Shown: positions 4,153 to 30,229, numbered from the stretch's first letter. The stretch: DNA of 64,000 nucleotides from an uncultured Oscillospiraceae bacterium (GCA_910579775.1 CAJTUE010000003.1:79653-143652); one strand, 5' to 3'. A program made the numbers and translations. Notes: generated from the sequence alone by a model not told the origin.

Positions 4153-4180
4153 AAGGCCACCGGCAAATGCCGGTGGCCTT
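4153..4180 (-). terminator. strong hairpin after the 376-aa SLH gene (probable operon end)
   Basis: aaggccaccgg / ccggtggcctt, an 11-bp stem with a 6-nt loop. The U-tract on the minus strand is weak. Confidence 0.5.
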
Positions 4181-4201: not shown

Positions 4202-5332
4202 TTATTCGCCGTCCTGAACGATCTGGTCGGTGCCCGCCAGAGGGCCTGCGTCGGTCAGATCGTCATGGTAACGCCAACGCTCGTCGATCCAGCACTGGCT
4301 CCAGTGCTCCGGCAGAGTCTGCTTGTCCGGACCAGTGTAGGTCAGGGCGTGGTCGTTGGCCGCCTCGATAATCTCATAATAGGCCCAGTGGTTGGCGGGA
4401 ACGTCGGGCCAGGTCATGTACTCGTCGGTGCCGTCCTCGGTGTTGTTGCTGGCTACGCCGGAGTGGACATACTCGCTCAGTTCACTGAGGCCGTCGGCAT
4501 CTACGCCCCGGTAGAGGTAGGCGTTGAATACCTTCACCGCCTCGTCACGGCGAATGTTGTTCAGCGGCTTGAAAGTGCCGTCGGTGTAGCCGTCGATCCA
4601 ACCCGCGCCGGTGGCCAGCTTCAGGCCCTCCTTGGCCCAGTCGCCCACGTCCGCCATGTCGTCGAAGTCGTCCTTCTCCACCAGGCCAACGGGAATACGG
4701 TCCATCTTCGTGGCCAGACGGGCCACGGCGGTGACGTACTCCTGCCGGGTGATGGGCGCGTCTGGCTGGAAGGTCCCGTCCAGGTAACCATTGAACACAT
4801 CGAACTTGGAACAGTAGGCGATGGCGGACTCGGCCCAGTGACCGGCCACATCGCTGTAGTTACCGGGGTTACCGTAGTTGGCCCCTTCCTCAAAGCCCTG
4901 CAGTCCCGCCCGGGCGATGATGGTGGCCACGCTGCCCCGGGTGATGAAGTCACCGGGGCCGAACTGGCCGTTGGGATAACCGATGACATAGTGCTGATGA
5001 TAGGGGGCATAAACGGCGTAGAAGGTAGTGTCCTTGGTGACCCGCTCCGCGGTGGGGTCCACCAGGGGAGCCACCTCCCCCACCTTCAGCTTGGAGGGGT
5101 CGGTCAGGGACCAGCCCAGGAAGGTCCGCCGGTCCAGCGGAGTGACCTTGGGCACATGAGCGGGCTTGGTGTCCTGGGGAACGGCCTCGGAAGTGAGGTC
5201 GCTGGAGGTGCCGCCCACGCCCAGGTTGTAGTCCACGGAGACAGGACACCCCGCCGCGGCGGCGCTGAGCGCCGTCGCGGTGAGGATGGTCATAGTCAGA
5301 AGCAGGGCGAGAAGTCTTTTCGCGTTCTTCAT
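4202..5332 (-). CDS. secreted protein with one InlB-B/Flg_new repeat plus SLH repeats; a free-standing paralogue of the giant protein's anchor module
   Basis: I prefer the ATG at 5330-5332, 8 nt after AGGAGG (5341-5346), over the GTG of the ORF track (5341). Signal peptide MKNAKRLLALLLTMTILTATALSAAAA. Listeria-Bacteroides-type repeat (..RRTFLGWSL..TTFYAVY). SLH motifs include YSDVAGHWAESAIAYC...TRQEY. It is about 70% identical by eye to the last ~350 aa of the 5,922-aa protein. Confidence 0.8.
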   Translation of the reverse strand: MKNAKRLLALLLTMTILTATALSAAAAGCPVSVDYNLGVGGTSSDLTSEAVPQDTKPAHVPKVTPLDRRTFLGWSLTDPSKLKVGEVAPLVDPTAERVTKDTTFYAVYAPYHQHYVIGYPNGQFGPGDFITRGSVATIIARAGLQGFEEGANYGNPGNYSDVAGHWAESAIAYCSKFDVFNGYLDGTFQPDAPITRQEYVTAVARLATKMDRIPVGLVEKDDFDDMADVGDWAKEGLKLATGAGWIDGYTDGTFKPLNNIRRDEAVKVFNAYLYRGVDADGLSELSEYVHSGVASNNTEDGTDEYMTWPDVPANHWAYYEIIEAANDHALTYTGPDKQTLPEHWSQCWIDERWRYHDDLTDAGPLAGTDQIVQDGE

Positions 5333-5348
5333 GATACGCACCTCCTAC

Positions 5349-8300
5349 TTAATGGAGCCAGACGCGGAAGCCCGCGGATAACAGAGCGGCGTTGGGACCG
5401 CCGTCGTTCAGGTCATCGTGGTAACGCCAGCGCTCGTCGATCCAGCACTTGTCCCACTCCTCGGGCAGGGTATAGCCCAGCTCGGACTCGAAGTCAGGCA
5501 CGAACTCGTGGTCGTTGGCAGCTTCCACGATCTCATAGTAGGCCCAGTGGCCCTGCGGCACGTCAGGCCAGGTCATGTACTCGTCGGTACCGTTGCCGGT
5601 GACGTTGCTGGCAACGCCGGAGTGGACATATTCGTGGAGCTTGCGCAGCCCGTCGGCGTCCACGCCGCGGTTCAGATAGGCGTTGAAGACCTTCACGGCC
5701 TCGTCACGGCGGATGTTGTTCAGCGGCTTAAAGCTGCCGTCGGTGTAGCCGTTGACCCAGCCCTTCTTGTAGGCGGTGTAGATGCCGCCCAGAGCCCACG
5801 ACCCGGCCTCGTCGATGTCGGTGAAGTCCATCTCACCGGGGGTCATGACGCCGTCCAGACGGGCGATGACCAGGGCGAACTCCTGACGGGTGATAGGCTG
5901 GTTGGGCTTGAAGGTACCGTCGGTGTAACCCTCAAAGACGCCGTACTTGGAGCAGTAGGCAATGGCGCTCTCGGCCCAGTGTCCAGCCACGTCGGTGTAG
6001 CCGCCGGGGTTGCCGTAGTTGGAGCCTTCCTTAAAGTCGGGCAGGATGGCCCGGGCGATGATGGTGGCCACGCTGGCGCGGTCGATGTTATCGGCGGGGC
6101 CGAAGTTGCCGTTGGGATAGCCGATGACATAGTGCTCATGATAGGGCCGCTCGATGATCACCGCGTAGAAGGTCATGGTCTCACCCTTGGCCGTCACGGT
6201 CTTGGGATCCACCAGTTCGATCTTCTCACCCTTCTTCAACGTGGCGGGGTTGGTCAGAGACCAGCCGCGGAAGACGTAGCCGTCCAGAGCGGTGACCGTG
6301 GGCACCTTGCTGGGCCGGCTGCTCTCGCTCACGTCCTCAATGGTGGCGTCAGCGGTGACGCCGTGGATACCCACATGGTAGAGCACCTTGCACGGGCAGG
6401 TCTCCACCACACCGCCGCCACCGCCGGGAGAGCGGATGGTGATCTGGAACACGTAGGTGGACTGGATCGTTCTCGCGTCCTCCGGATCGTCCGCATTGGC
6501 CTTACCCAGAGCCAAGAGGGTCAGAGAATAGGTCCCGACCTTCGAGGTGTCCGCTGCGCTCAGATCGAGGACAACGCTCTGCTTGGCGCCGTCCACGGTG
6601 AGGTCAAAGCCTGTGGGCAACGTGCCCAGAGTGGCTCCGATCCCGTTTTCGGCAGAGGAAGTGATCGTATCCTGTGCCACCGTCCACTGTACGTCGTAGA
6701 CATTCGCACCATACGCGCCCAGGTTGATGGTGTAGCTGCCCAGCCCGGTAGCGCCCTGCATGACGGAAACGGTGCGGCGGTCATCCACCTTGGGGCCGGT
6801 CGTATCGGCCGGGTCGCTGCCGTCCTTCACGTCGTCGTGCATCAGGTAGGGTATCTTCTGTGTGATGTGGATAATGTGGTCGCCGTCCTCAGGATCACGC
6901 TCCACCTCCGGGTCGGGCGTGAGGTGGTCTGTAACGGTCAAGTCTGTGTTCTCGGTAATGTCCTCCTTGACGTCGGGAGTCGTGTCATCTTCTTCAGCGT
7001 AGACGTAGTTGGGATCGATGGTCACGTCCACCTTGACTTCCGTGTGCTTGCCGTCAGGCTCGCCGGGTTCAGGCTTCCAGGTGACGGTCACGTCCTGGAT
7101 GGGCACGTTGCCCTTGTCGTCCGGCGTTTCATTATCCACCGGCTCGTCGTCCTCGGTGGTTCCCTTCACCTCGGTAGGCTCGGTCTCGGGATCGGTAACG
7201 GTCACGTCTACCTTGGTGATGACCTTGGGATCGACCATAACGATCAGCTCATAAGTGGCCGTCACGTCAGGTTCGCCGCCCTCTGCGGCCAGCTCCGCAT
7301 TGGAGTAACCGGTAAGGGTAAACTTCGCGTGATGCTCGCCCACCCAAAGCTTTCCGCTCACAGGGGCCAGCTCCAGAACAAAAGTCTTTTCTCCGTCGCC
7401 AGAGGCAAACTGACCGTTGGTAAAGGTGGGATACGCACTGCCTTCCGCCAGCTTAAAGCCGGTCAGCTCATCCACCGTAAACACTGTGCCATGAATGGCC
7501 GCGTCCAGACTATGGAGCTTCACGGTGTACTGCGGTTCCACGTCCAGATAGGTGATGCGCTCGTTCTTACGGAAAGTCTCGTTGGTGTACGCCATGGCTT
7601 CGGGCGCCGTGGTAAAGGTCCCGTCGTAGCCCTCCGGCTTTTCCACCAGACTGTAGTCCGTGTCAAACTCGCCGGGCTTCAGCACATTCTCCACGTCGGC
7701 AAAATTCCGGATGATATCCGCAAACTCTGCGCCCACAGGAGGCTTGGCAATGGTGATGGTCATGTCGGTGACCGCCGCGGCGTAGTTCCACTTCTCCTCC
7801 GCCGTATCCGGCTTGTAGGTGAAGGTGAATCTATAGGTGCTGGGTTCCCCGGTACCTTGGAAGCGGGTGGGCGCCACCGTCCACGTGCCCTTATCGTAAA
7901 CGCCGCTGTCGTTGTTGGTCACATCGCCCGCATGACCGGTCGTATCGATCTGCGTGGCGGCTTGATCGTGAACGTTCTCGTAAGCAAACAGATGCTTGCG
8001 CACCGTCTCGTTGTACATGGGCACGCCGTTTTCATCCACAGGGATAAAGCTTCCGGCTGTATTCGCCGCCACATAGGCGTCGCCGCGCTTCACAGAAGTG
8101 TCCTGTGCTGCCGCGTGCGTCACAGCCAACTGGCCGGGCTCCACGTTGACCGTATAGGTCACGTCCTTGGATTTTCCGGCGTTGGTGGTAATGCGAACGG
8201 TAAGGACGACCTCGTTGTCCACTGCGCCGGCCTCGGCATAGGTCGCCTTGGTGCCGTCCTCTACCTGAACGTTGGTGTTCACAGGGGACTTGACGCTGAA

Positions 8301-11300
8301 TACGCCGGTGTCGGCATTCAGCTCCAACCAGTCGGGCAGGTCATCGGTGTTGACCACTGCATAGGTAAATGTTGTTCCGGTCGCCTCGGAATCAGTTGCG
8401 GCTACGCTGGTCTCGCTGCCGTCCTCAAATTTGGAGTTGCCATAAATCACCAACGCCTTCTTGTCAGCCGCGGTAAAGTCGCCGGGAGCAAAGGAGGCTT
8501 CTACCGTCGCTGTCAAGGATGTGGGTCTAAACACGGTCTCCGCCTTGGTTTCTCCCTCTTCCTCCAGGAATCTTCCGCTACCTGCAGTAATTTTCCAGCC
8601 GGTAAACACATAGCCGGGCGCAGGGTTCGCGTGAATCGTTACAACGCCATTCACTGTAGAGGCAGTAGAGGTTTCAGCGGCAGTTCCGTCCGACACGCCA
8701 TTCGTCACTTGGACGGTATGCCCCTGTCCCTTGTTGTCATCTGCCACAACGGCGGTCACATCCTTGTCACCTGTAGAGGTCACGTACGCTTTCGAGCGGT
8801 CATAGCCGGCATAACCCTCATTCTCAACACCCTTCTCCAAATCGTAGAAGGTGATGATATAGTCTTGGTCGCCCTCCAAGTTAGCTGTGATCCAACTGTT
8901 GGTCAGAACATAGTCGCCGTCCGCACCCATCTTCCCACCGGAAGGCTGTCCGGCAATCTTTTCAAAGGCAGTCGCATTGAGAACTCTGGGTGTGGTCAGA
9001 TCTTCATCCTCTGCCCCGGTCACTGCCAGGAAGCGAGAGCCGTCTGCCGGCTTGATCTCAATGCGGACATTGCCGCTGCCGTCATTGTGCTTATAGGTAA
9101 AGGTGCGGTCCGCTACCGGGATCGTTGCCGCGCCGATGGTACAGCCATTGGCGCCCGTCAAAACCGGCAGTAGGTCATAGTAACCGATAACCGTGTCCTG
9201 TTTCGTGACTGCGTAGGTCATAGCCAAACGGTCATCCGCATTCACTTCGATCCTGTCGTCACCCTCCGGCCCCCATCCAACAAAGTAATACTTCGCATTG
9301 GCGGGTGTTGCATTGTCGGCCTCATCTGCGGTAAAGGAAATTTCGCTGTTATCGGCCGGGATCACCAGCGTCCCGGAGTTGGACTTGGCACTGGAAGCTG
9401 TCTCGCCTGTACCGTAAGTGCCTTCGATCTGCACCGAAGTATCGGCGACCTGTGTCTTATCGCTATAACGCTGGGTTTTTAGAGAAATTGTTACCTGAGC
9501 ATAGACCGCGTCGGAGACAGCAAACTCACTGGCGTTGGCGGTACCAGCGCTGCGGTAGGCAATGAGGTAGAAGAACTTACCTTCTTCCGCCGCGCTGGGC
9601 TGGCGGGTCTTGCCCAGGGTGGTGTCCACGGTAGCTACGCCGTCCTTAGCTACCATCTTGTTGTTGGCCGTATCGATCTCAAAGTTGGCCGCGGTCAGGT
9701 CGCCCTTGTCAGACACCGCCCAGACGAAGCTGAGATCGCCGTCCTTCAGGTTGGCGTCCGTGCTGTTGGCGGCCACGGCGTCGGTGGCGGCGCTGCCGTC
9801 GTGATCCACCATCACGTGGTCAAGACCAGTCTTATTGGTGGCGTCGTTCTTGTCGTAACCCTCCAGGCTCAGCTCGCCGGTGGTGGCGTTCTTACCCGTG
9901 GTCACGCTCACGATGGGCAGTGGCTCTACCGTCAGATCGAGCACATAGTAAACGGTGGGGCCGACCGGGGTGTTGCCGTTGGTATCGGCATAGGTGGAGG
10001 GGAACTCCACCACATAGACCGCGTCGTCCTTGTTGGCCGCCGTCTTCTTCAGGGTCAGCGAGCCGCCGGCGGTGGTACCGTTCACTGCCAGGGCGGTGTT
10101 TGCGATGTCCAGACCGGAGATGGTCAGGTTATCGTCACTGTAGCTGCCGCTGGTCAACGCCAGCGCAGTGCCCAGCGTAACGCCGGTCATATTGGTAGAG
10201 GCGTTCACGCTCCCCGCCGCCAGCTTGTAGACCTTGGGCTGGCCCAGCTTCAGATCGGTGTTGCCCGGATTGCTCAGGGTCAGCGGGAAGGTTCCCGCGG
10301 TGGCGTTGAAGTAGTGGGTCTCTTCATTGTAGGCGTGCTTGTAGTTGGTGGCTACGTTGCCGCTGCCCTCAGAAGTGGCGTTGTTGTGGGGGGCCGCGCC
10401 CTCGTTGTCGGCCACCTTCAGCTTCAGGGCGGTGCCCGCCACGTAGATGGTGAACACCCGGTCGTCCGTCTGAACGGTGGGGGTCAAAGTCTCCTTGTTC
10501 CGGGTCTTGTCGGTATCGGTGTCGTCCGTGTTGACCGTTACCCGCTGAATGGTGGTGTTGACGCCGTCAAAGGAGGTGATATTATAAATACCCTTGACCA
10601 CGGTGAACTCGGCGGTATCACCCGGCTCACCACGAACGCCGTTGTTGTCCCCATCGCTCAGCACGCCGGTGGTCAGTTTTCCCGCCTCCGTAGCCGTGGT
10701 GAGGGTAAACTTGTTGTTGGACTCCGCCAGCTCCACCTTGAGCACGTGTCCGCCAGTCATGCCGGTCTCGTTCTTCACCGTGCCCACGACCTCATAGGTC
10801 TTCTGGTCGAGGCGGCCGCCGATGAAGGTCTTGTGGGTCACCGCGCCGTAGGCATACGCCCCGTTGGCAATGGCGGCGGTGGCGGACTGTCCCGTGGTCG
10901 CGGAGTCGGCCAGATTCACATCGGCGACGGCGGCGGCGGTGTTGTCATCCGACTTCTGCCGCCAAGTGAGGGTGTAGTCCTGAACCCAAGCCTTATCGGC
11001 GTTGGGCGCGCTCAGCGCCGGAGCCTTGGCGGCCACGCTCTGGCCGGAGAGAACAGGGGTGCCGTTGGGCAGAGCCGCGTGATCTGTGCCGATGGTAAAG
11101 GCGGGGGTGATGGTCACGCCGGTGAAGTCCTCCCCGGTGCCCGTCTGATACTCCTTGTTCACGAAGTTCACCGCATTGACGGTGAAGTAGGGCGCCGTGG
11201 CGGTGCGGTTGGCGTTGGAAATGCTCACATCGGCCAAGGTGACCAGGTTGGTCTTGTCATCCTTGGCGCGGCTGACCTCAACGGTATAGGTCTTGGTGGG

Positions 11301-14300
11301 CTCCAGTGCGGCCACATAGCCCTGGGCAGTGTTGTCCCAGGTGCCCTTGATCTTGTCACTGCCGTTGACAAAGTTGACGGTGTAGACAGGGTCGGTAGTG
11401 CCGCTAATGACGCCGGGATCAGCAGTCAGCGTCGTACCGTCCACCGAGATCTTCACAACGCCCTGGAAGGTGCTGGTGATGGGTGTAGAAATGGCGGCCT
11501 GGCTGGCGTTGCTGTCGTTGTTGGCATAGATGACCAGGTAGATGTCCTTGCCCTGCTGGGTCGAAGGGTCAAAGGTCTTGTTTGTCGCCCCGGCAATGGC
11601 CGTTGCGCCGGAAACGGTGGGGACACCCGCCGCCCAAGTCACGGTGGGCTGGGCAGAACCAGCGTCGGCAGCATACCACTGATACTGGTAATCCTCAGCA
11701 TTGCCGTAGGTCAAAGCGGTCTTATCGTCGGCGGCCACAGGATCGGCAGGCTCAGTCTCCGTAGCGGTAGCCGCGCCGGTGGGCGTCACCTGATACTTGT
11801 CGATGGACAGCGTGCCGTTGTCCAGCTTCTTGATTGTCACGTTGGTGAAGGGCAGGGGATCCACCACGACCTTGAGGGTGTAGGTGACCTTTGCGCTTCT
11901 GCCGCCGGTCTCCTTATTTTCAAAGGAGAAGTCAGCGGAGTATTTGTACTCACCCGCGTCCAAGCCGTCGGCAATGGTCAGGGTGATTTCTTCCTTCGCG
12001 GCGGGTTCCATCTTACCGCCGGTAAAGCTGCTGGCTGTGATGGCACTGGTGTTGCCGGCCGCCGGGGTGCTCCTCACGTTCCAGATCGCCGTGCCTTCGG
12101 TGGTGTTCTCCACCTCCATGACCACAGTCTGCCCCGTAGGGTAGTTGTAGTTCAGGTGGATCTCTTGATTGACGGTTCCGTTGACTACCGCCGCGGTATC
12201 AGCGTTGGGGATACTGCCCATGCCCGACTGGACGGTATTGCTGTCTGTTTTGTCCTTGGGCAGAGACGTCTCGGAGACCTTCATGTTCAGACCTTCACCG
12301 ATGAGGTTCACATCGTAAGTGTCCACATGCTCATCGCCTGTCACGTTCACGGTGATCTTCACACTGCCGGGATTATCCATGTCGCCGGGGGTATCCTGTC
12401 CGCCGTAGCGGTAGTTCCAACTGGCCACGCCGCTTTCCGTCTGACCGGGCACATGGGCGGTGGTGGTGTAGCCGTCTGCCTTAGGCAGACGGAAGGTGAC
12501 AGATTTACCCACGCCGATCCGATAATTCGTGGCGGAATCCAACCCGCTGTCGTCAATGCCCAGAATATTGTCAGTCTGCGTCCGCAGGGAGGTAAAGGTG
12601 TTGGTCACCGCGCCGTCTTCAAGGGCCATGGTGAGGTAGTTCACCCAGCCCGCGGTACCCGTGGCGTTGGCCTTCACGGGATAGAGGTTCAGCTTCAGCT
12701 GGGTCTTGACCTGAGCCAGCTGGCTGGAATAGGTCACGTTGGCGTGGGTCACGGCCCCGGCGTTGCCCGCCGCGGCCTTGTCGGTGGCGGTCACGCCGCC
12801 GGACCAAGTCAGGTCATAGTCCTTCGTCCACTGGGGATAGGTAAAGGTGACCTTCGTGCCCGTCTGTACCCAGGTGTTGACCACGTCCCTGCCTGCGACC
12901 CCTTCCGCGGCGGCAGAGGGACGCGGCGTAGGCGCGGTTTTGTAGAAATACTTGCTGCCATCAGGGATGTTCAGCTTGCCCTCGTAGTCATTCTGATGGA
13001 CGCTGGTATCATCCACGTCCACCTTGTAGTAAACCACGTCTTCCGTGCGGTGACCCACAGTGATGGTCTTCCCGGTGTTCTTCAAGGTGGCATCGTCCTT
13101 TACGATGCTGGCGTAGACCTTATAAGTCCAGGGCTTAGTGCTATCCGGGTTCTCCGGGTCGCTGGCCCACAAGTTCTTGGTGGACATAAAGGCGTTGTCC
13201 GCCGTGCTCCACTGGGTGGGGATCAGGTTCTCCGTATCGTTCAGGTCGATCTCGTCTCCACCCTGGGTGTTCCAAAGGTAGACGGTGTACTTCGCCCCTT
13301 CATCCGGGTCGGTGACCAGGGTAGTGTTTTCATGGATGGTGATCAGACCGTCGAAGGGCACCAGTTCCACCGGATCGCCGGCCTCCACGTCAGGGGTCAT
13401 GGCCGCGCTGGTGGCGTCCCGCTGGCCCTTGGCCACCAGGAAGAGGGCCATGCCTTTTTCTCCCGCGGTGGGCGTATAGGTCAGGTTGTTTGTGCCACGG
13501 GTGCCGGCACCCAGAGACAAGTTGCCTGTGCCGCCAGCGGTGTAGTAGGGCACGCCGGTGTTCTTGTTCAACTTCACCGTGGCATCCCAGGGAGCCACGT
13601 ACCACTCATAGACAATGTCGGCGTTGGTGGCCATGTTGTAATCGCCATCCTCCATGGTCACCAGAGCATTGTAATGGGGCTTGGTGGCCGGATTTTCGCC
13701 GTCCTCCGCGACCCAGGTCTCTTTGACATCATAGCGGATCACATTGCCGTCGCTATCCTTGATCTTGTTGGTCGCCACCTTGCTCACCGTGACGGGGTCG
13801 ATGGTGATGTTCAGGTTGTAGACGCCGTCGGGGCCCTTGGTGGTCACGCCGTCGCGGCCATCCACCGTGGAGAAGTTGAAGTGGTAGGCCACGTCGTCAT
13901 CGTTGTTCAGGTCGGCGGGGATGGTGACCACAAAGCTCTTGCTGGCGCCCACCGCCAAGTCAAAGGTGCGCTCCAGGCCGCCGATGGTCACGCCGTTGCC
14001 ATCGGTCAGAACACCGCCCGTCAGGGTCTGGGTGCCGTCATACACGGTGGTGTTGGTGCCCTTGGTGATCCCCAAGGTAACAGTCAAGGGGGTGTTGCCC
14101 TGGTTGGTGATGACAACGGTGCGGGTGTACTGGTTGTAATCCGCGAACTTTTCCTTGTCGCTGTGGTTCACAGTAGCCGTGGCAGAGCCGCCGGTGGCGA
14201 ACTGCTTGTGGGCCTCGTTATCCGTGTCCTTCACCTCGATGGAAAGGGTAGTAGACACGATGTGGATGGCAAACTTGCCATTTTCCGCCTTGGTCACCTG

Positions 14301-17300: not shown

Positions 17301-20300
17301 CTGCCGCACATAATGCGCAGTCAGGGTCACGTCGGCGGTCATGCTGCCGATGGTCCAGGTGGTGGCGTTGCCCGTTCCCCCCTCCGGGGTGGTCACGTCG
17401 CCCGCACTGGCGGTCCAGAAGGAGTTGTTCGTTCCGTCATTGGCGACGGAACGCTTGCGGTAGCCCGTTGCTACTGTGGCGGCGGCGTTTACCGTCGGGG
17501 CAGCAGTGGTCACCGCCGCGCCGTTGGGTACGATCGCCAAGTTGCCCGTACCCGCGGCGTTCAGGCCCACGTTGCTGGTACCGCCCGCGGCGGGATCACG
17601 CGCGGTGGTCACCTTAAACACCACAACAGGCACTTTTCCGCCTGCGTTGGCGGAGGTGATCTGCTTGTTGCCCGCTCCGACCTTAAAGCCGTTCACCCAG
17701 ATATCATAGGTCTTGGCCGGGTCCAGACCGGACACACTGTAAGTGCCGTCGGCAGTCTGCTTTGTACAATTGATCGTGGGAGCGGCGCCCACCTCGGCCA
17801 GCTGCACCGTGGTCACGTTCGTCAGCGTGCCCGTGGTGGTCAGATGCCGCGTCTCAATAGTGGTGGCGAAGGTATAGGTGGGTGTGACCACCAAGTCGGT
17901 AGCGGCATTGTAACCCGTCTGCAGCGTCACCGTGCCGCCCGAAATGGATACATTCGCGAGCGCCGGGTCGTTGGTCTGTTCCCAGTTCGCCAGGGTGTAC
18001 CCGGTCGAGTGGGTCTCCGCGGCGGTCACGTTGCCCACGGGAGTCACCACACGGGCGCTCGCCGCAGAGCCGGCCCCGGCGGCCCGGACCGTAGCAGTAA
18101 GGCAGCCGGCGGGCTTCGTCTCCGCGACCTTCACGCCGTAGAAGTTCTTGGTCGCGACGTCATCTATCTTGGCCTGCTCGTAGTAAACGCCGCCGTCAAC
18201 GGTGGTAATGCGCCAATAGGGCGCCGTCACGCTGGCCGAAGATACGCCGTTGGCCTCCCAGCGGTCGTTCTTGCGCTCCAAGGTCACGCCACTCACCGAA
18301 GCCGTCCCGGTGGCGGTGTTCACCAGCTGGATCTCTTTGATGTTGGTGTCGCTGGTTCCCTTCGTGGCCCAGTTGCTGGTGTTGACGTTGACCACCAGAT
18401 AGGTGTTGTACTTATCCTTGATAAAGTTTGCCGTATAGGTGACCGTGCTGGTCACGCTGGCCAGCGTCTTGGGGTCGGAGGTATCGTGAGTGGTGGTGTT
18501 GTTCAATTGCCAGTAGCTAAACTTCCAGTTCTCCTGAGGATTCATCGACGTCCACTTCACCGCCGTGCCGTTGATCACCACAATGCTCTGGGAGGTGACC
18601 GGCGTGCCGTTGGCGTAATCCGTCTGGGCGGAACCGCTCAATCCGTCGGTGGTGACCTCCACCTTGGCGTCGCCGTGTCCGGCGGTCGCCGCTGTGACCG
18701 TCCAGTATCTGACCGTGATCTGGGGCACGTTAGCCTGATTCACCGTCACCTTGGCGGTGTGCGTTCCCACATACCCGGTCTTGCTCACCGACAGATCATA
18801 CTTGTTGGCGTCCGTGCCATTATACTCCACATTGCTGAAGGTATAAATGCCGTTTGCAACGCTGGTGGGAGTCTTCGTAGACAAAGTCACTGTGGCGTCG
18901 TTGACCGGGTTGCCGTCCAGCAGCACCTGTACCGTCACCGTGCCCAGCTTCTTCTTGAAGGTCGCCGTCAGCTCAGTCTTCTGGTTCATAGTGACGCTGG
19001 CGCTGGCGGAGGTAGGCGCGGTAATGCCGCCCACATCCACCGTCCATGCGTCCCACTCATAGTCGGTGTTCTTGGGGTCGGCAATGAAGGACACAGAAGT
19101 GCCCTTCTTATAGACGGTCGGTCCGACGGTCTGCGCCGTCGCGGAGGACCCAATGCCCACCTGCGCGGCGGTGGCCTTCGTCTGATCCGCCGTCAGCTTC
19201 AACGTGTAAAGCTCCAGCTTCGCCGGGGCGGCGGTGCTGTCCTGGGTGCCCTGGTCCACCGTAAAGGCGCCGTCCGGCGTGACAACGCTCCACTTCAAAT
19301 TGCTCTCCGTCGCCGAAATGACCCCCGCGTACTTCCACAGATTGACCGTCGTATCATAGGTCGCGTCATGGGTCCCCAGCTTCACGCTGGTGATCTTCCC
19401 GCCCAGGGCGGTCACGCCGCTGTCATCGAGGATCAGGTTCAAATAGGTATCGTACTTCGGCTTGCTGAACTCGGCGATCAACTCCGTCTTCTGGGTCAGC
19501 GTGATCTGGTTCGCCGCGTTCGTCGCAGTAGTAGGCAGAGTGCCCTCACCAAGCTTCCACCTGGTGAAGGAATAGTTGCTGCCGCTGGGCGCGGCGTTGA
19601 TATACACCGTCGTACCCGTCAGATAGGTGCCCGTCTGGTTATCCTGATTCGCCGTGGGCGGGTTGGCGGTAGCGCTCTGGGCGACCTTCGCGCCGCTGTC
19701 CACCGTCTGTTCAGCCGTCACCTTCAGGGTGTAGAAGGGGATATTGACCGTCTGATCCGAGGCGATCGCCGTAATGGTCCGGCTGAACGTCCCCAGGGCG
19801 ACGGTGTAGTTGTTCCCCTGCTCCACAGTAAACTCTTTGGTCGCGTCGGAGGTGGTCGTCCAGTCGGTCTGTCCGGTTACGGTGACCGTCTGGCTCCCGC
19901 CGGGGTGCTGGGTCGTGCCGTTCACCTGGAGGTTGACCGTAATCGTGGCGGTCAGCTTGGCGAAGGACACCGTGTACGTGGTGGTCTCGGTAATGGCCTT
20001 CAGCGTCGTGCTGTTGGTGGTGCTGGCAGCCGTCTGATCCACGCCCGCTGTCTTTGTCCAGGTCGCGGCGTTGGGGTTATAGTAGGTCTGCGCGCTGGCC
20101 GACAGGGTCACCCCCGTCGTGCCGTCCAGCACCACCAACGAGTTGTTGGAGGTGTTGACCTTGGGCGCGGTAGCGCCCGTTCCGGCGTTCAGCGTCACGG
20201 TCCAATAACGCACATCCTGGCTGCCGCCGGTATCTCCCACTGTAATATCGATCCCCGTGTTTGTACCGTTGACATAGATGCGATAACTACCCGGCGTAAC

Positions 20301-23117: not shown

Positions 23118-26100
23118 TTCATTGTCCTCCTAGTCAGGAATGCGATAATGGGTCCGGCCATGGTCACGGTCACGGACGGTTTTCGGTCGGTCGGTTCGTC
23201 AGGTATGTCCTCCAACGTCCCTGCTGCCTGCAGGGGGGCCTCCTCCGGCCCGATGAGGGCATCGGGCCCTACAGGCTCCTCCAGCGTCGCCGCGCCAGGA
23301 GCCTCTACGGTCACGGGGTCGCCGCGCCCTACGGGGGTCGCGTCGGGCAGGTCATCCAGGGGGACGTTCTCGTCCTCCGGGGCTTCCTCCAGGCTCAGGA
23401 GGCTGGCGCGGGTGGCCTTTTCCTTCCACACCCACGGCGCGTTCTCCTGGGTCGCCCAAGCCTCACATTCCTCTGTGGTGGGCATGATCCAGCCCGACTC
23501 TACATCGTTGAGATGGAGCAGCACATATTGGAACTCCGCCCACGTCGGCGGGGTCACCCACTTGCGGTTGGTCGCCGCGCCGGTGATAAACTCCTTCTTC
23601 CGGTTGGAGGTGTTCAGGGCGGTCATCACCTGCCACAAGAGGTCCTGCTTATCCCCACTGAACATTTCCGCGGCGGCGATCACGTCGCTGTCGTTCGGTC
23701 CCTTGCGCAGCAGCAGGGTGTCCTTCAGCTTATCGTCCGTCAGGTCATAGACAAACCCCGCGGGGTTGCCCGCGGTCTTCTTGAAGTAACCGATGGCGGA
23801 GGTCATAAAGTCGCCCCACTCTGTGGCGTCTGGCCGCACCGCCTCATACTCGACCTTTCCGCCGGTGACCCACATCCACCCGTAATTCTCCTTCTCCGCC
23901 GCGCATTCCTCTGTGGGCGGCATGATCCAGCCCGACTCCACATCGTTCAGATGGAGCAGCACATATTGGAATTCCTCCCAGGTCGGCTTATTCACCCACC
24001 TGCGGTTGGTCGCCGCGCCGGTGATAAACTCCTTCTTCCGGTTGGAGGTGTTCAGGGCGGTCATCACCTGCCACAAGAGGTCCTGCTTATCCCCACTGAA
24101 CATTTCCGCGGCGGTGATCACGTCGCTGTCGTTCGGTCCCTTGCGCAGCCGCAGCACATCCTTCAGCTTTTCGTCCGTCAGGTCATAGACAAACCCCGCG
24201 GGGTTGCCCGCCGTCTTCTTGAAGTAGCCGATGGCGGAATCCAGGAAAGCGTCCCATTCCGCCGGGTCTGCAAACAGCTCTTCCTTCTTGACCTCTTCCT
24301 CCGGCTTTTTGTCCGCGTTGAACCACCAGTAGGCGTCCACGCCGTCCACAATGACCTCCGCCTTGACCTCCGCGTCCGTCTTATAGACGCCGTTCAAGAG
24401 CAGATACTGGAGCTGGTAATCCGTCAGCCCCGTCAGGCTGTCATAGGTCAGGGTGGGATCGGCCGCAGCCGCCGCGCGCAGCGTGCTCAAAAGGGCGTTC
24501 TTAAACGCCTCAATGCTGGTAAAGGCCGCGCCGTCCGCGTTCACGCGCATAGCCATGCCTGGGTCGGTAACCGAGGGCCGGCGGGTGATAAAGTCCAGAT
24601 CGAGGATCTGGTCCATGGCGTCGGTAGCTGTCTTGCCGTCAAAGCCCACCGCCGCCAGCCAGGCGGCCTGGGCCAGGGTGGCGTGGGTGTCGGCGGTGAA
24701 GCCACTGCCCTGCCACCAGTAGTTTTCCGTGATGCTGGCCGCGGTCTGATAGCTGCTGCCGGGGAAGAGGAGGTGCTGCACCTCCTTCGTCAGGTCCGCG
24801 GCGCTCTGGGAAGCGACGGCGTCCAGATCCTTGTAGGGCAGGCCGCCGCCCGTCTTGCGCACGACCTCCATGATCCGGGCGCGCAGGTCGGCATAGCTCT
24901 CGTCGGTGAAGGGCATGCCGTGGACCTCCGCGCGCAGCTTCAGCCGCTCCAGGGTGGCGGCGTCCAGCTTGCCCAGGGGGTCGATGGCCAGAGGCTGCAT
25001 CGCCCCGTCCACCTCCACGCCGTCCCTGGCCCAGTAGGCGTAGGTGAGCAGGTCCATAATGTCGCCGATGCGCTGGGCCTCGGTGGGGGTGTGGGGCTCG
25101 GGGATCCACCAGTAGTTGCACACCACGTCCGGGTCGGCGGGGTCGGCGATCTTGTCCGCGGGCGGAATGGGCTGGCCCACCAGCTTGTTGGCGTTAATAA
25201 GCAGATATTGCAGCTGGTAAATATCCAGGGCGTACTCTCCCGAGGGCAGCTTCCTCAGGCTGCCGTCCAGGCTCAAAAAGTCGTTCATGTTGTCCACAAA
25301 GCCCAGCACCTTCAGCGCCAGCTCCAGGGAGGTCTTAAACTGCTCCACGCTGGTAAAGCCGCTGCCCGCGGCGGTGCGGCGGAGATAGACCTCGTTATTG
25401 ACGGGGGTGATCCCCTTGGCCAGGAGGGTGTCCAGCTTGGTGGAGTCGGTGTAGTTGCTGGCCCGCCAGGCGTCCGCCGCCTCCATCAGCCGCTCGTAGG
25501 TGAGCCGCGGCTGGCCGCCGTTCTTCCACCAATAATTCTTTTCCTTGAGGATCTCCTCCGCGGTCTTGTAGTCTCCCGCCGGCTGGATCAGAGCGTATTG
25601 GATCTCCTCCCAGGGGATAGTCTCCCACACGTCCATCACCGTCTTGGGGTCGGAGAGGTCATAATGGGCGCTGAGGGTGGTCAGCGCCTTGAGCCAGGCG
25701 GTCTTGAACTCCGCCAGGGTGGTAAAGGCGTTGTCGTCCTCCTCCGACTCCTCCTTGCGGAACCACCCCACATTTTGTGGAGTTTCGTTCCCGGTGGGGG
25801 GCGCGTAGCTGATCAATTCTGTCAAAGCGTTGGGCAGGTTCTCCTCCGTCATGGCGTCCAGGGCGTCGGGCACATCCCCTGAGACCACCAGCATGCCGCC
25901 CTCGATAAAGTCCTTCCAGCCGGTCACCGGGCGTTTGCCGCCGTTTTGCCACCAGTAGGTCTTGCCCGTGGTGGGCCAGGTCCCGGTGATGAGCAGCTCC
26001 TGCACCTGCTCCGCGGTGATCTGCTTCATGGCGTCCTGGTCCAGGCCCGCCGCCGCCAGAATGTCGTATACCTTCTCCAGCGCGTCCAGCATCTCCTGGC

Positions 26101-29100
26101 GGTTCTGGAACTTGCGGCCGTCCTCGTCCTTGCGGAAGGTGGACTGGTAATAGCCGTCCAGGAGGGAGGGGGTCTCGGTGAGCAGCTTATCCAGGGCGTC
26201 CTTGGCCGGGTGCTTATCTCCGGTCTCGTCCTTGGCCTTGTCCATGGCGACAAAGATATCACCCAGGTCAAAGATATCCACAGTGATGTCCTTGGCGCAG
26301 TCGTCCAGGCGGCACCAGGGGAAGCCGGCGCACTGGGCCTCGCTCATGAGGCTGCCGCCGCTGTAAATGCCGTCGCCGCCCCCGGCCTGCATGCACAGCA
26401 GGATGTGGCGCTGGAGTTGATGCCAGCCCAGCTTCACGTCCCCGGTCTTGGGGTCGATAGAGACCCCAGCGTTATACAGGCGTGTGACTAAATCTTGAAA
26501 GTAAGTGGCGGCGCGGGTATAGTTACCCCCGGTAAATTCATCCCCGTTCAGATTTGTCCGCAAATTCAAATCCTTAAGCGTAGCACGGCTCATGTGTTGC
26601 GTTAATTTGTTGCTCTCACCTCTTGCTCCCTTGGTCGCCTCCGCAAGAAGAGTGTTCAACGTAGCATCCAACACAAAGCCATCTGTTCCCTGACGGTCAG
26701 GATAGGCGACCCCGTCCGAATAGAGGAAGTTGTTTTTCAAGTCCAGTTCCTCACCGGCAGAGCGTTGCTTACCTGAAGAAATATTTTCTCCATAGGTATC
26801 TCTCAGCATATAATCCAACTTCCACAACACGCCGCCGGTGGTCATGTCGATGTTCAGAATATCGTCGTTGTTGGAAAGGGTCTTCAGGAAAAACACGTTC
26901 GTATCAGAGGACGGGTCCAAGTCCTGGTCTTCCGAATCAAACGCGTTTACGTCGTAGGTATAGCCTGTCTGTACAGCAGGGTCTCTAGTCCGGTTAACTC
27001 CCTGCCATGGTCCTTCCGCCTGCGATGCACGACGGTATTGATATTGAAAAGAGTAGACTGATGCCTCGGTAGAGGCCGCAATACTATATCTCTCTATGTG
27101 TAAACTTTCGTCCACCACGGTATAGTTATAGTCCTCCAGCAAGCTCTCTCCCGGCTCATAAACCGCCTTGACAATGAGCACGTCCTGGCCGGGCCGCAGC
27201 ATTTTTTCCATGGCGGAAAAGTCCGCAAAACGCAAATACCACGCCGCGTCCTGTTCGGTCACGGCGTAGGTATATGGCTCTGCGGTTCCGGGTATGGTTT
27301 GGGTGGCGGCTGCTGCCGGGTCCAGGTCTCCCAGCTCGCCCACCCCGAAGGTGGTCCACACGTCTTCGGTTTTGATGGAATCCTTATGTAAGATCCAGTT
27401 TTTCTTGGTGAGGTCCTGTGACTCGTCCTCCACGATGGCCCATCCATATACATATGGATAAAGGTAGCCGTCGTATTCCTCCTCCGGGTCAACGGGGGCC
27501 GGCCCGGTCTCCACCGGATCGACGGTGTAGTACCGGGTGGTGAGTCCCGTGCCGGGGTCGGTCACCTCCTTCTGGGTGGTGACGCGGCGGTAGAAGGCGT
27601 AGTCCAGCTTGTCCGTTAACGGGTAGTCCTCTCCCGGCTCGGCGCTGTCCGGGCCGAACTTCATGGCGTCGTCATTGTCGTGACCGACGGTATAGGCGTA
27701 GTCCCCCCGGTAGGTATGCTCCCGCGCCAGGGAGTTTACCCGGTTTTGGTAGTCGGCATATTCGGGCTTGGTCTGCAGGTCGGCCAGATCCTTGGCTCCG
27801 GCCACGATCTCCCCCGTGCGTAACCGGGGATGAATGAAGGTCTTCTCCACGTATTCGTTGACCAGAGGGCGCGCGTCACCCTCGGGGTCCACCACAAGGG
27901 CTCCGATGAGGGTGTCGTCCCAGTCATAGAAGAGGATCTGCGCGCCGCCCACGCCGCCGGTGGGCTTGCGGTAGGTCTCCGCGTTTACCAGGGTGAGCCG
28001 GAGGGTGTTTTCCCTCAGGGTGAGGAGGTTCTGGAAGAAGGAATAATTCCCGTTGGCGTTCACGCCGCCGGGGGCGTCGGGGTCGCCGGGGGTGGCCCAG
28101 GCGGCGTTGTAGTCGGCCACGATGGCGGAGCCCAGGGTGTTGGGCAGCCACAGCGTCGCCTCGTCGTCGTTGTCGGTGGCCTCGTCGTGGATCACAACGT
28201 TCCCCTGGCCGCTGACGTTATAGGAGGTGTTCTTGCCCGCGCCCAGGTAATAATAGAAGCGGGTGGGCGCGTCGGTCACGCCGTCGTTCTCCAGGTTCTG
28301 GGTGTAGAGCACGCTCTGGAACACCGAGCTGCCCGCCACCTGCTTGTCGGCGGCGGTGAGGCTGGCGGCGTCTGTCCAGGCGCCCAGATAGGTCAGGGGG
28401 GTCTTGCCCGAGTTCTGGGGAAGCTCCGCGTCGCCGGGGTCGTTGTCGTCCTTGTTCAGGCCCAGCCAGAAATTAGAGGTGTTCGGCTCGTAGTCCGGCT
28501 GGCCGGGTTCGCCCACGCCCACCTCCAGGTCCGTGAAGCGGTTCATATCATAGGCAAAGCGGACCACCACCACGGGGGTGGAGGTCTCGTAGACTACGTT
28601 GGCGGTGGTGGTGGTGTTGGCCGAGAGGGTGAGAAGGCCCGTGCGGTCGGTGGCCGCCGCGCCGAAGGTCCCCTCCTCGATAAAGGCGGTGGCGTTGTTC
28701 ACCTCGTCGGGCTTGGCGGTGTCCAGCCGGACCCGGACCTTCTTCCCCGAGGTGTTATTCAGCACAGGGTCCAGGTCGGTGAAGATCTTCGCCTGGTCCT
28801 CGCCGTCCTTGTCGATGCCCCGGGGGTAGTGGGTATCGCGGCCGGCGTCGTCGGTGTAGCTGCCCGAGGTGGAGCCGGTCCCGGCGGCGGACCAGCTGTC
28901 GTAAACGGGCTTGCCCGCGCCCCAGGTCACGGCGGTGAGGGCGTCGAGATTCACCGTTACAGCCGCCGCGGCGGACTGGAACGGGTAGTTGCGCACATCA
29001 TATTTGGCCTCCAGGGCCGCCCGGTCCTCGGGCTTGTTGCCGTCCGCCAGCACCTGGGCCAGCTCGGCGGCGTAGACCGCGTCGTCCACAAGGGAGCCGT

Positions 29101-29359
29101 CTGCTTTCAGGGTGACCGTGCGGGCCGTGCGCACGCACAGGGCCAACTCGTAGAAGCCGGTGGGCTTGCCCTTGTCCACCACCACGTTGCCCTGGATGGT
29201 GACCTGGGGCTTGGGGGCCGCGCTGTTGAGCAGGGCGCTGGCGCCCTCCGCCGGAGCTGCCAGGGCCGTACCGCTGAAAAGCGCGCAAGAAAGCGCCGCC
29301 GCCAGGAACAGCGCTCCCAGACGGCCGAGCCGGCCGGACCCTCTCTTTCTTGTCTCCAC
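23114..29359 (-). CDS. 2,081-aa secreted protein: beta-rich N-terminal half plus 7-8 helical YWW repeats, with no recognisable wall anchor
   Basis: GTG start at 29357-29359, 7 nt after GGGGG. Signal peptide ..LGALFLAAALSCALFSGTALAAP. The stop overlaps the giant ORF start (ATGA, 23114-23117). Repeat motifs are listed in the findings. Confidence 0.85.
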   Translation of the reverse strand: METRKRGSGRLGRLGALFLAAALSCALFSGTALAAPAEGASALLNSAAPKPQVTIQGNVVVDKGKPTGFYELALCVRTARTVTLKADGSLVDDAVYAAELAQVLADGNKPEDRAALEAKYDVRNYPFQSAAAAVTVNLDALTAVTWGAGKPVYDSWSAAGTGSTSGSYTDDAGRDTHYPRGIDKDGEDQAKIFTDLDPVLNNTSGKKVRVRLDTAKPDEVNNATAFIEEGTFGAAATDRTGLLTLSANTTTTANVVYETSTPVVVVRFAYDMNRFTDLEVGVGEPGQPDYEPNTSNFWLGLNKDDNDPGDAELPQNSGKTPLTYLGAWTDAASLTAADKQVAGSSVFQSVLYTQNLENDGVTDAPTRFYYYLGAGKNTSYNVSGQGNVVIHDEATDNDDEATLWLPNTLGSAIVADYNAAWATPGDPDAPGGVNANGNYSFFQNLLTLRENTLRLTLVNAETYRKPTGGVGGAQILFYDWDDTLIGALVVDPEGDARPLVNEYVEKTFIHPRLRTGEIVAGAKDLADLQTKPEYADYQNRVNSLAREHTYRGDYAYTVGHDNDDAMKFGPDSAEPGEDYPLTDKLDYAFYRRVTTQKEVTDPGTGLTTRYYTVDPVETGPAPVDPEEEYDGYLYPYVYGWAIVEDESQDLTKKNWILHKDSIKTEDVWTTFGVGELGDLDPAAAATQTIPGTAEPYTYAVTEQDAAWYLRFADFSAMEKMLRPGQDVLIVKAVYEPGESLLEDYNYTVVDESLHIERYSIAASTEASVYSFQYQYRRASQAEGPWQGVNRTRDPAVQTGYTYDVNAFDSEDQDLDPSSDTNVFFLKTLSNNDDILNIDMTTGGVLWKLDYMLRDTYGENISSGKQRSAGEELDLKNNFLYSDGVAYPDRQGTDGFVLDATLNTLLAEATKGARGESNKLTQHMSRATLKDLNLRTNLNGDEFTGGNYTRAATYFQDLVTRLYNAGVSIDPKTGDVKLGWHQLQRHILLCMQAGGGDGIYSGGSLMSEAQCAGFPWCRLDDCAKDITVDIFDLGDIFVAMDKAKDETGDKHPAKDALDKLLTETPSLLDGYYQSTFRKDEDGRKFQNRQEMLDALEKVYDILAAAGLDQDAMKQITAEQVQELLITGTWPTTGKTYWWQNGGKRPVTGWKDFIEGGMLVVSGDVPDALDAMTEENLPNALTELISYAPPTGNETPQNVGWFRKEESEEDDNAFTTLAEFKTAWLKALTTLSAHYDLSDPKTVMDVWETIPWEEIQYALIQPAGDYKTAEEILKEKNYWWKNGGQPRLTYERLMEAADAWRASNYTDSTKLDTLLAKGITPVNNEVYLRRTAAGSGFTSVEQFKTSLELALKVLGFVDNMNDFLSLDGSLRKLPSGEYALDIYQLQYLLINANKLVGQPIPPADKIADPADPDVVCNYWWIPEPHTPTEAQRIGDIMDLLTYAYWARDGVEVDGAMQPLAIDPLGKLDAATLERLKLRAEVHGMPFTDESYADLRARIMEVVRKTGGGLPYKDLDAVASQSAADLTKEVQHLLFPGSSYQTAASITENYWWQGSGFTADTHATLAQAAWLAAVGFDGKTATDAMDQILDLDFITRRPSVTDPGMAMRVNADGAAFTSIEAFKNALLSTLRAAAAADPTLTYDSLTGLTDYQLQYLLLNGVYKTDAEVKAEVIVDGVDAYWWFNADKKPEEEVKKEELFADPAEWDAFLDSAIGYFKKTAGNPAGFVYDLTDEKLKDVLRLRKGPNDSDVITAAEMFSGDKQDLLWQVMTALNTSNRKKEFITGAATNRRWVNKPTWEEFQYVLLHLNDVESGWIMPPTEECAAEKENYGWMWVTGGKVEYEAVRPDATEWGDFMTSAIGYFKKTAGNPAGFVYDLTDDKLKDTLLLRKGPNDSDVIAAAEMFSGDKQDLLWQVMTALNTSNRKKEFITGAATNRKWVTPPTWAEFQYVLLHLNDVESGWIMPTTEECEAWATQENAPWVWKEKATRASLLSLEEAPEDENVPLDDLPDATPVGRGDPVTVEAPGAATLEEPVGPDALIGPEEAPLQAAGTLEDIPDEPTDRKPSVTVTMAGPIIAFLTRRTMK
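23465..24258 (-). repeat. near-identical intragenic tandem duplication (period 438 nt = 146 aa)
   Basis: catgatccagcccgactc... starts at both 23483 and 23921. The encoded ~105-aa cores differ at about 9 positions (SAIGYFKKTAGNPAGFVYDLTD...HLNDVESGWIMP). Confidence 0.85.
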
Positions 29360-29491
29360 GGCGATACCCCCGTCTCGAAAGGTTTACTCTTCTCTCTTTT
29401 CCTCCGCGGCGTTCCCCATTTTGCGCAAAATTTCTGAATTTTTCAGCAATATCCGTCAAATAGGGCGCAAAGGTAGACATAATTATTTTTG

Positions 29492-29520
29492 ATTATACAA
29501 CAAGCCTTTCCAAATTGCAA
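29492..29520 (-). promoter_or_regulatory. candidate sigma-A promoter of the giant-protein operon
   Basis: The minus strand reads TTGCAA (29515-29520) - 17 nt - TATAAT (29492-29497). The leader to the GTG start is about 125 nt. Confidence 0.6.
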
Positions 29521-29661: not shown

Positions 29662-29690
29662 TTGACACGGCTTTATTATTGTGGTAAACT
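29662..29690 (+). promoter_or_regulatory. candidate rpsO promoter
   Basis: TTGACA (29662-29667) - 17 nt - TAAACT (29685-29690), with a TGn extended -10. Confidence 0.6.
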
Positions 29691-29696
29691 ATCTCA

Positions 29697-29793
29697 GTCT
29701 GCGAAGGCAGACACTACCCTTGGCTGTGGCCTGCGGCTTTCACCGGCCCTTGTCTCGGCTTTGGGCAAATTTTGTGAAAGGTGGAACACCACA
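29697..29793 (+). promoter_or_regulatory. rpsO 5' leader, possible S15 autoregulatory structure
   Basis: A ~100-nt leader with hairpin gtctgc-gaag-gcagac and further GC-rich pairing potential before RBS GAAAGGTGG. The function is inferred only from known S15 autoregulation. Confidence 0.3.
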
Positions 29794-30060: not shown

Positions 30061-30069
30061 GAATGTGAG

Positions 30070-30097
30070 ACATAGGGCGGCGTATGCCGCCCTATGT
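30070..30097 (+). terminator. rpsO-pnp intergenic hairpin (attenuator or processing site)
   Basis: acatagggcggc - gtat - gccgccctatgt, a 12-bp stem. Confidence 0.55.
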
Positions 30098-30229
30098 TCG
30101 CATATACGGCCCGGTAGTTTCCTCGTTTTTTTAGCAGTTGAAGATGGATTTGACATTGCTCGAGCCTATCTTCAAGTGCTAAAGGGCAGAGAAAACTCCG
30201 GGTCAAACGAAAGAAAAGGAGTTGTTATC

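Follow-up and report, generated by a model that had tools for sequence, protein, structure and literature searches.

A 64-kb stretch of the genome of an uncultured Oscillospiraceae bacterium (GCA_910579775.1, CAJTUE010000003.1:79653-143652; hereafter the window) carries on its minus strand three consecutive genes for exported proteins, which we call A, B and C. Our analysis favours, on balance, the reading that they encode a two-component wall-anchored fibre for adhesion or recognition, which would be under diversifying selection by phages, host immunoglobulin A (IgA) or competitors. The genes lie on the chromosome as a surface-structure locus that is confined to a clade of gut Oscillospiraceae. 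This locus is a mosaic and hypervariable, with replacement concentrated, in this species, in the N-terminal head of B and the C-terminal repeats of A. Giant wall-anchored surface fibres are of an already known kind; new here are a structurally unmatched partner family and the strain-level mosaic of the exposed parts. The initial annotation of the window had read the locus as a wall-tethered giant, an unanchored partner and a spare anchor, and this overall reading is supported, its checkable elements having held.

Among gut commensals the Oscillospiraceae are abundant but poorly understood, and next to nothing is known of how they contact their surroundings. In the window about 25 kb are devoted to the three exported proteins.

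Architecture of the locus

The open reading frame (ORF) table and the sequence place A, B and C consecutively on the same strand, where the initial annotation had put them. The genes and the parts of their products are listed below (aa, amino acids; nt, nucleotides; SLH, S-layer homology; pLDDT, predicted local distance difference test).

23114..29359, minus strand: gene A, GTG start, 2,081 aa, predicted to be secreted, without an anchor (ORF table)
26690..29254, minus strand: A residues ~36-890, beta-rich multidomain N-terminal half (AlphaFold model of residues 1-1100, pLDDT 79.9)
23390..26689, minus strand: A residues ~891-1990, helical region (AlphaFold model of residues 901-2081, pLDDT 79.5, all-helical)
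23460..24197, minus strand: 438-nt tandem duplication in A, two 300-nt copies 93% identical, amounting to one extra 146-aa helical unit
5349..23117, minus strand: gene B, ATG start, 5,922 aa, predicted to be secreted, with a C-terminal SLH anchor (ORF table)
B residues 1-28: signal peptide, with an acidic Pro-rich linker after it
20418..22895, minus strand: B residues ~75-900, N-terminal head, almost repeat-free within B and strain-variable
6432..20417, minus strand: B residues ~900-5562, stalk of divergent beta-rich modules (self-BLAST, jackhmmer, Pfam)
5352..6431, minus strand: B residues ~5563-5922, anchor module, made of a B-repeat-like domain with CPxxVxY, three SLH repeats and a C-terminal extension
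4202..5332, minus strand: gene C, 376 aa, predicted to be secreted, three SLH repeats, a stand-alone copy of the B anchor module

The junctions between the genes are tight. The TGA of A overlaps the ATG of B as ATGA, with AGGAGG 8 nt upstream, and the TAA of B is followed by GT (2 nt), AGGAGG, 8 nt and the ATG of C at 5332. The annotated ORFs, the GTG start of A, the ATGA overlap with its AGGAGG and the spacing from the stop of B to the start of the 376-aa SLH protein were all found in the sequence, and the close coupling claimed for the three genes is borne out by these junctions, which lie behind a conserved promoter and before a positionally conserved hairpin. We infer that A, B and C are co-transcribed. 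The longest form of gene C in the ORF table starts at a GTG at 5341, and the public databases hold the 376-aa ATG form. Hydrophobic segments in A, B and C are solely N-terminal, bar a marginal 19-residue window at B 885. All three products are thus predicted to have the signal peptides that had been claimed for them, and we propose export by the Sec pathway.

Strain-level mosaic variation

Between relatives, the proteins of the neighbouring genes prfB and RNase Y are 86-98% identical, and the identities are 32-64% for A and 28-42% for B. The pattern can be followed within the species of the window, to which the locus L037 also belongs (homologous loci are denoted by L and a number). The two have 99.7% nucleotide identity over 7 kb of flank, and across the locus they compare as follows.

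A aa 1-700: 100% identity
A aa 700-1000: ~78%
A aa 1000-1200: ~98%
A aa 1200-1700: 50-69%
A beyond aa 1700: unalignable
A/B junction with the B signal peptide: 98% nucleotide identity
B aa 75-900: 26-48%, bar one 50-aa window at 70%
B aa 900-3300: 96-100%, bar two 50-aa windows at 90% and 94%

A conserved junction of 300 nt separates the variable tract in the tail of A from that in the head of B, and the reading frames are intact in both alleles of the variable parts. Sharp breaks recur elsewhere. A second species pair (L038/L009) breaks 1.46 kb into A, the rest of which is 18-40% identical, and its giants are 24-49% identical except for an island of 96% nucleotide identity. Pairs of public A alleles match at ~100% identity over the first 400-750 aa, after which the identity drops abruptly to 15-45%. 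Against the strain of L031 and L033, C is 92% and the histidine kinase encoded next to it 91% identical, B 32-42% and the N-terminal half of A 45%, with the C-terminal half of A undetectable by BLAST; an 86% nucleotide identity runs from window position 6428, the start of the anchor module, down to the end of the kinase gene.

The G+C content is uniform across the window (57-63%), and the variation therefore represents exchange among related lineages or maintained old alleles. A horizontally acquired island was considered and rejected because of this uniformity and because the housekeeping neighbourhood is conserved in several relatives.

This mosaic variation was invisible to the initial annotation and narrows the functional options. 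Since B is anchored at its C-terminus, its head would be the distal end of a fibre. Segments exchanged between strains that otherwise do not differ are presumably the exposed ones on which selection acts, so the helical repeats of A are probably exposed too and may sit with the B head. The exchange of a tip between strains fits a ligand-binding or antigenic tip under diversifying selection.

The giant protein B and its anchor

The Pfam content of B is Flg_new_2 and SLH alone. Flg_new_2 (PF18998) is matched at E 4.6e-9 in three stretches, plus others, and jackhmmer found at least six B-repeat copies, one of them inside the anchor module; the InlB B-repeat/Flg_new_2 feature of surface proteins is thus present in B. 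In the stalk, Flg_new_2-like B-repeats alternate with ~90-aa modules over aa ~900-2300, three super-repeats of ~640 aa occupy aa ~2470-4400, and unique modules lie beyond. This repeat map is coarse, as the modules are very divergent and simple seeds recover few copies. B has no long tandem repeats at the DNA level. When B was tiled with self-BLAST and jackhmmer, seeds before aa ~870 recovered almost no paralogous copies, and a homologue query with residues 1-1200 gave two hits only.

The SLH family (PF00395) is matched in three stretches of B (E 5.9e-36) and in three stretches of C (E 9e-30). Pfam finds none in A, in agreement with the claims that only the last two proteins have SLH repeats and that A lacks an anchor. 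The SLH part is also the only part of B that matches solved structures by sequence, namely those of Bacillus anthracis Sap (6bt4, 3pyw). The C-terminal extension of B ends in CWIDERWRYHDDL. Protein C aligns over 364 aa with the last ~390 aa of B at 60% identity, and the spare anchor proposed for it turns out to be a paralogue of the B anchor module. We rejected C as a lipoprotein. It has a lipobox-like AAGC, but in orthologues the cysteine often follows QK, E, SK or ER, and it is part of CPxxVxY, a domain motif found inside B as well.

It was claimed that the locus has no enzyme, toxin, pilin or sortase, dockerin or secretion-machinery signature. The searches agree: Pfam, NCBIfam, PHROGs, PADLOC, the PDB (by sequence and by profile) and motif scans yielded no signature of an enzyme, a toxin, a sortase signal, a dockerin or secretion machinery. 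In particular, a motif scan finds no C-terminal LPXTG sortase signal in A, B or C. A and B have no match in PHROGs or PADLOC, and the PHROG matches of C are confined to its SLH region (aa ~155-280). A phage or defence origin of the locus was also rejected, the PHROGs and PADLOC searches being negative and a fold search of BFVD empty.

The fibre could serve chiefly as a coat that protects the cell or as a decoy, for instance a sheath associated with the S-layer or a shield that wards off phages or immunity, with A as a component of the coat. S-layer proteins and those associated with S-layers are typically anchored by SLH repeats, pressure by phages or antibodies would also yield strain-level replacement of exposed parts, and no recognisable lectin or adhesin head was found in B with Pfam or PDB. 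However, a 5,922-aa stalk with one non-repetitive head resembles a stalk-and-tip adhesin and not a lattice former, no self-assembly domain was identified, and the coat differs from the adhesive or recognising fibre in purpose alone. We regard it as unlikely.

Distribution and conservation

The trio is conserved well beyond the window. Scanning one genome per species, we found the A family restricted to Oscillospiraceae and other Clostridia, with members from the guts of mouse, rabbit, goat and others, and it includes Pseudoflavonifractor phocaeensis and Vermiculatibacterium agrestimuris DSM 112226. Wherever the locus extends far enough, a giant of >2,500 to 8,294 aa lies directly 3' of the A homologue. 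This adjacency persists at 24-28% A identity in P. phocaeensis and V. agrestimuris, and tight or overlapping A-to-B junctions recur across loci. A C orthologue follows the giant in L031, L034, L035 and L036, its start called 16 nt past the end of the giant. Both C and the kinase follow in L031, L035 and L036, the last being the complete isolate genome AP025582.1 of Oscillospiraceae bacterium CE91-St43; in L034, C is at the contig end. A gene-neighbourhood search had been suggested as a check on the trio, and it shows the trio recurring in relatives down to about 30% A identity.

Two other arrangements were seen. In the distant relatives L017-L022 (V. agrestimuris, P. phocaeensis and metagenome-assembled genomes, MAGs) giants flank A on both sides, and in L024, L026 and L029 the A-homologous core is a separate protein of 640-830 aa preceding the giant.

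High-G+C DNA yields very long chance ORFs, and one has to ask whether the giant ORFs arose by misassembly or misannotation or are pseudogenes in decay. The window has shadow ORFs of 4,273 aa (9801-22622, plus) and 1,251 aa (5418-9173, plus) opposite B, and one at 30233-33169 (minus) opposite pnp. The reverse strand of B is free of stops because its codons are rich in Thr, Ala, Gly and Val, and ORF length alone is therefore no proof of a gene in this genome. For the same region, however, it is the minus frame, and not the plus-strand frame of 4,273 aa, that has the signal peptide, Flg_new_2, SLH and collinear homologues. The identical B protein occurs on 37 contigs (NCBI, ENA, Logan) and C on 441 (NCBI, ENA, JGI/IMG, Logan), 11 of the loci compared have collinear B homologues, and the variable parts keep their frame in both alleles. 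The artefact explanation, which the initial annotation had named as a possible refutation, is effectively refuted. A fourth gene at 30233..33169 (minus, 978 aa) was rejected as a shadow of the plus-strand pnp, with rpsO beside it.

The public records name these proteins 'hypothetical protein' or 'S-layer homology domain-containing protein', from an Oscillospiraceae MAG. A search of the full-text literature, which does not cover all journals, gave no description of the locus or of the A family. The suggestion that the combination may be undescribed agrees with these uninformative names and with that search, within its incomplete journal coverage.

Protein A, a rare family with no recognised fold

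Protein A has no match in Pfam, NCBIfam, PHROGs, PADLOC or PDB (sequence and profile), and eight separate segments of it match no Pfam family even at E<=10. None of its 75 full-length homologues (1,600-2,200 aa) has a Pfam domain. An exhaustive HMMER search of 1.84 billion cluster representatives with a profile of the A core gave 163 relatives at E<=0.001. By these sequence searches A is the founding member of an uncharacterised and rare family.

The AlphaFold models of A, built on a 48-sequence alignment, revise what had been claimed of it in one respect. A was described as a helical-repeat partner; its C-terminal half is indeed helical, but residues about 40-890 are mostly beta. Neither model has a match in PDB at E<=0.001 with Foldseek. 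The best weak matches of the N-terminal model are type II cohesins (E 0.035-0.1, TM-score (target) 0.35-0.40), which are non-significant, and the best PDB fold match of the helical model has E 1.3 only. A structure search of the viral library BFVD found nothing. The models are confident and match no solved fold, which makes A a good structural target.

The most conserved core of A spans aa ~440-900 and includes ILFYDWDD, YTYRGKY, YPLTNKLDY, WTTFGVGEL and LIVKAVYEPG. Shorter relatives of 650-900 aa comprise this core alone. The helical region has about six repeat units with a W..QY...YWW consensus motif. Its first helical segment has an invariant cluster H980/C1016/C1021 (window ~26297-26422), for which the family consensus is WCHLHxxCA and the window sequence WCRLDDCA; it could be a disulfide or a metal site and would be unusual in an exoprotein of a strict anaerobe. 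The A proteins of other records have 1,934 or 1,935 aa, are 99% identical where aligned and are 146-147 aa shorter, which suggests copy-number variation by one 146-aa unit. Among 36 A-family members scanned with Pfam (31 shorter and distant, five long), none has an enzyme domain and a few have SLH, LRR_5, Big_2 or Flg_new. The few distant relatives of the core with Pfam domains thus carry surface modules, which points to a surface context.

Several distant homologues (e.g. P0049, P0054, P0056, P0060, P0063 and P0068) have an E[IT]PLG[ED]E motif in a Pro/Glu-rich linker ~30-50 residues before the C-terminus, of which the A protein of the window holds merely a loose version, LIGPEEAPL. A C-terminal sorting signal in A (...IIAFLTRRTMK) was rejected, since its RR arises from in-frame reading of the B Shine-Dalgarno sequence AGGAGG and homologues share no conserved C-terminus. 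A motif scan of A finds no dockerin-type Ca loop, LPXTG signal or HExxH.

One alternative is that A is a released soluble exoprotein (an enzyme, a glycan binder or an effector) that is merely co-expressed with the giant, the core being its active or ligand site. It would account for the lack of an anchor, for the dozens of invariant D/E/R/K/W/Y residues in aa 440-900 with the His/Cys/Cys cluster, and for the 650-900-aa relatives that bear the core alone. Yet no catalytic family or fold was found for A by sequence, profile or structure. The strict adjacency of A to a giant, with frequent overlap of stop and start over a wide divergence, and the joint variation of the A tail and the B head within species also argue against release, to which we give a low probability.

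Alternatively, A could be an extracellular factor for the assembly, folding or maturation of the giant that stays outside the final structure. A is encoded first, is translationally coupled to B and always precedes the giant. However, an assembly factor should be conserved, and the 2,081-aa A protein has strain-variable repeats and copy-number variation; it has no peptidase, isomerase or transglutaminase signature. We consider such a role even less probable than release.

Transcription signals and flanking genes

The locus is bounded by the following elements.

29492..29520, minus strand: promoter TTGCAA-17 nt-TATAAT of the sigma-70 type, seen in the sequence, scan score 10/12
29473..29485, minus strand: 13-nt block TAATTATGTCTAC, directly downstream of the -10 and invariant in a five-locus alignment
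4153..4180, minus strand: G+C-rich hairpin after C with a 13-bp stem and a weak T tail, probably a terminator or attenuator
3284..4126, minus strand: histidine kinase of 280 aa with one transmembrane segment and HisKA/HATPase domains (Pfam)

The promoter had been annotated from its consensus. A lone match of this kind is weak evidence, the scan giving six sites against 2.3 expected. However, neither hexamer nor the 17-nt spacing changes in the five-locus alignment (the window, L033, L009, L010 and L008), and the A proteins of the four other loci are just 45-63% identical. The five loci also share TAATTATGTCTAC, their coding sequences being highly diverged, and the block may be an operator, a transcription-start or a start-of-leader element. 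The promoter lies ~130 nt from the GTG of A. A riboswitch in this leader was rejected, as no Rfam family matches at E<=1 and the fold stability is ordinary (z = -1.5).

The strong hairpin annotated after C is present. A strict terminator scan does not call it because its tail has only four T in eight bases, but its position is conserved in four loci including the window (with L031, L035 and L036), and the stem sequences differ. Internal promoters or terminators that separate the genes would have spoken against a single transcript; in a scan of the genes, such sites occur at the level of shuffled sequence (7 against 5.4 and 17 against 17.2, respectively).

The kinase gene has its own ribosome-binding site 3' of the hairpin and lies 3' of C in every relative with sequence there (L031, L032, L035, L036). 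The kinase is a possible regulator of the locus and may or may not belong to the operon. The flanking genes scanned within the 64-kb window include no response regulator for it and no csaB-like gene, csaB encoding the pyruvyl transferase for the secondary cell-wall polysaccharide that SLH proteins bind in its pyruvylated form.

On the other side, the operon ends at the divergent plus-strand genes rpsO (29662..30060) and pnp (30065..32377). The block from pnp to RNase Y (30065-41438, with prfB, DUF896, YlmH and an ABC transporter) differs in order and orientation relative to A in L001, L002, L006 and L037; RNase Y adjoins A in L006, and rpsO-pnp adjoins A in the window. The locus seems to have a rearrangement point at its upstream edge.

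Two further observations concern the envelope. A 732-aa 5'-nucleotidase/metallophosphoesterase with C-terminal SLH is encoded at 920-3118 (minus), a second SLH exoprotein near the locus. An MBOAT O-acyltransferase followed by an AlgX/DHHW-like SGNH protein is encoded at 54076-57030 (plus); such pairs are of the kind that acylates envelope polymers, and this one may bear on wall chemistry.

A model of the proposed surface fibre

We propose that one promoter drives the three translationally coupled genes and that their products leave the cell by the Sec pathway. The SLH triplet would hold the C-terminus of B non-covalently on the wall polysaccharide, and the roughly 50-60 beta-rich modules of B would project a fibre, of the order of 200 nm if the modules have typical sizes, with the non-repetitive N-terminal head outermost. 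C would place a free copy of the anchor module in the wall. The unanchored A might be retained by binding to the fibre, to the free anchor or to both. The beta-rich N-terminal half of A would be its docking or structural part, and its variable helical repeats would be exposed beside the B head. The contact by which A stays on the cell might be made by the invariant N-terminal half of A and the invariant anchor module, present in B and free as C. The B head and the A tail would be exchanged between strains by recombination, and the most likely role of the whole is adhesion to, or recognition of, the surface of a host, a particle or a cell. Binding of A to B or to C, the geometry of the fibre, the agent of selection and the ligand are the parts of this model that we infer.

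Several points weigh against this model. The co-variation of A tail and B head could be mere physical linkage, as the two segments are adjacent in the DNA. The invariant charged and aromatic residues of the A core, with H980/C1016/C1021, would fit an unrecognised enzyme or a glycan-binding site as well. The cohesin-like fold suggested by the model of the N-terminal half of A is, as a hint of docking, a lead and not a finding. Read-through past the weak-tailed hairpin into the kinase gene may also occur.

A more specific version, which we put forward only tentatively, is that A and the giant make up a two-component surface organelle of a type so far unknown in Gram-positive bacteria. A, as a helical-repeat protein with a new fold, would dock on the SLH stalk without cohesin-dockerin chemistry, and matched alleles of A tail and B head would be exchanged between strains as one specificity cassette which sets the recognition of host, phage or IgA in gut Oscillospiraceae.

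The locus is conserved in the clade, and its exposed parts are swapped despite neighbours that are 99.7% identical. It is thus likely to determine strain-specific colonisation, susceptibility to phages or recognition by antibodies. Cultured carriers exist (CE91-St43, P. phocaeensis and V. agrestimuris DSM 112226), in which these hypotheses can be tested.

Comparison with known systems

Giant extracellular proteins with RCC1 domains have been described in Oscillospiraceae, including Pseudoflavonifractor, of the human, mouse and rabbit gut; they consist of one repeated RCC1 beta-propeller domain and have no anchor (bioRxiv 10.1101/2023.11.21.568195). In contrast, B has no RCC1 (PF00415) match in any segment at E<=5 and ends in SLH.

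Polymorphic toxins and contact-dependent inhibition were considered and rejected, as the C-terminus of B is its most conserved part (86% nucleotide identity against 32-42% aa identity elsewhere). Reading C as an immunity gene was rejected as well, C being a paralogue of the SLH anchor.

The Sap, EA1 and BslA proteins of B. anthracis share with B three tandem SLH repeats, those of B being similar in sequence to the SLH of Sap (6bt4, 3pyw). The SLH repeats are N-terminal in Sap and EA1. In B they are C-terminal, and the passenger has more than 5,500 aa and no crystallisation domain.

Variable cassettes are generally known from the S-layer of C. difficile and from the diversity of pilins and M proteins. 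The present locus resembles them in its sharp breakpoints, near-identical flanks and alleles that are 15-48% identical. It differs in its genes and architecture, and in that the variable tract spans the 3' part of A and the 5' part of B, with a conserved junction between.

The giant adhesins and periscope proteins (Ebh, SasG and Rib/Esp of Gram-positive bacteria; SiiE, LapA and MpIBP of Gram-negative ones) are, like B, multi-thousand-residue chains of beta-sandwich domains that project a distinct head. They also vary in length, as do the giants of the relatives (4,816-8,294 aa). B differs in its anchor, which is a non-covalent SLH module and not an LPXTG/sortase signal or retention by a type I secretion system, and in its repeats, which are divergent at the DNA level. 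Tested for copy-number variation of the periscope type, B has no long DNA tandem repeats, and A has the one 438-nt duplication, 93% identical. To our knowledge, systems of the Ebh, SasG, SiiE or LapA type lack an obligate secreted partner of 2,000 aa and a free anchor paralogue.

As a working analogy, the anchoring of cellulosomes in Clostridia comes closest, where SLH-bearing proteins of the SdbA, OlpB and Orf2p type hold, through type II cohesin and X-dockerin, a scaffoldin that has no anchor of its own. The weak and non-significant fold matches of the N-terminal part of A are also to type II cohesins. The analogy does not extend to cohesins by sequence, to dockerin motifs or to associated enzymes. 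No cohesin family is matched by Pfam in the whole of A at E<=0.01 or in its eight segments at E<=10, a regular expression for the duplicated Ca-binding loop of dockerins has no match in A, B or C, no Pfam dockerin was found, and there is no carbohydrate-active enzyme in or near the locus. Common to both are C-terminal SLH triplets as the wall anchor, a small SLH anchor gene beside a large unanchored secreted partner, and the same taxonomic neighbourhood, the Oscillospiraceae, formerly Ruminococcaceae.

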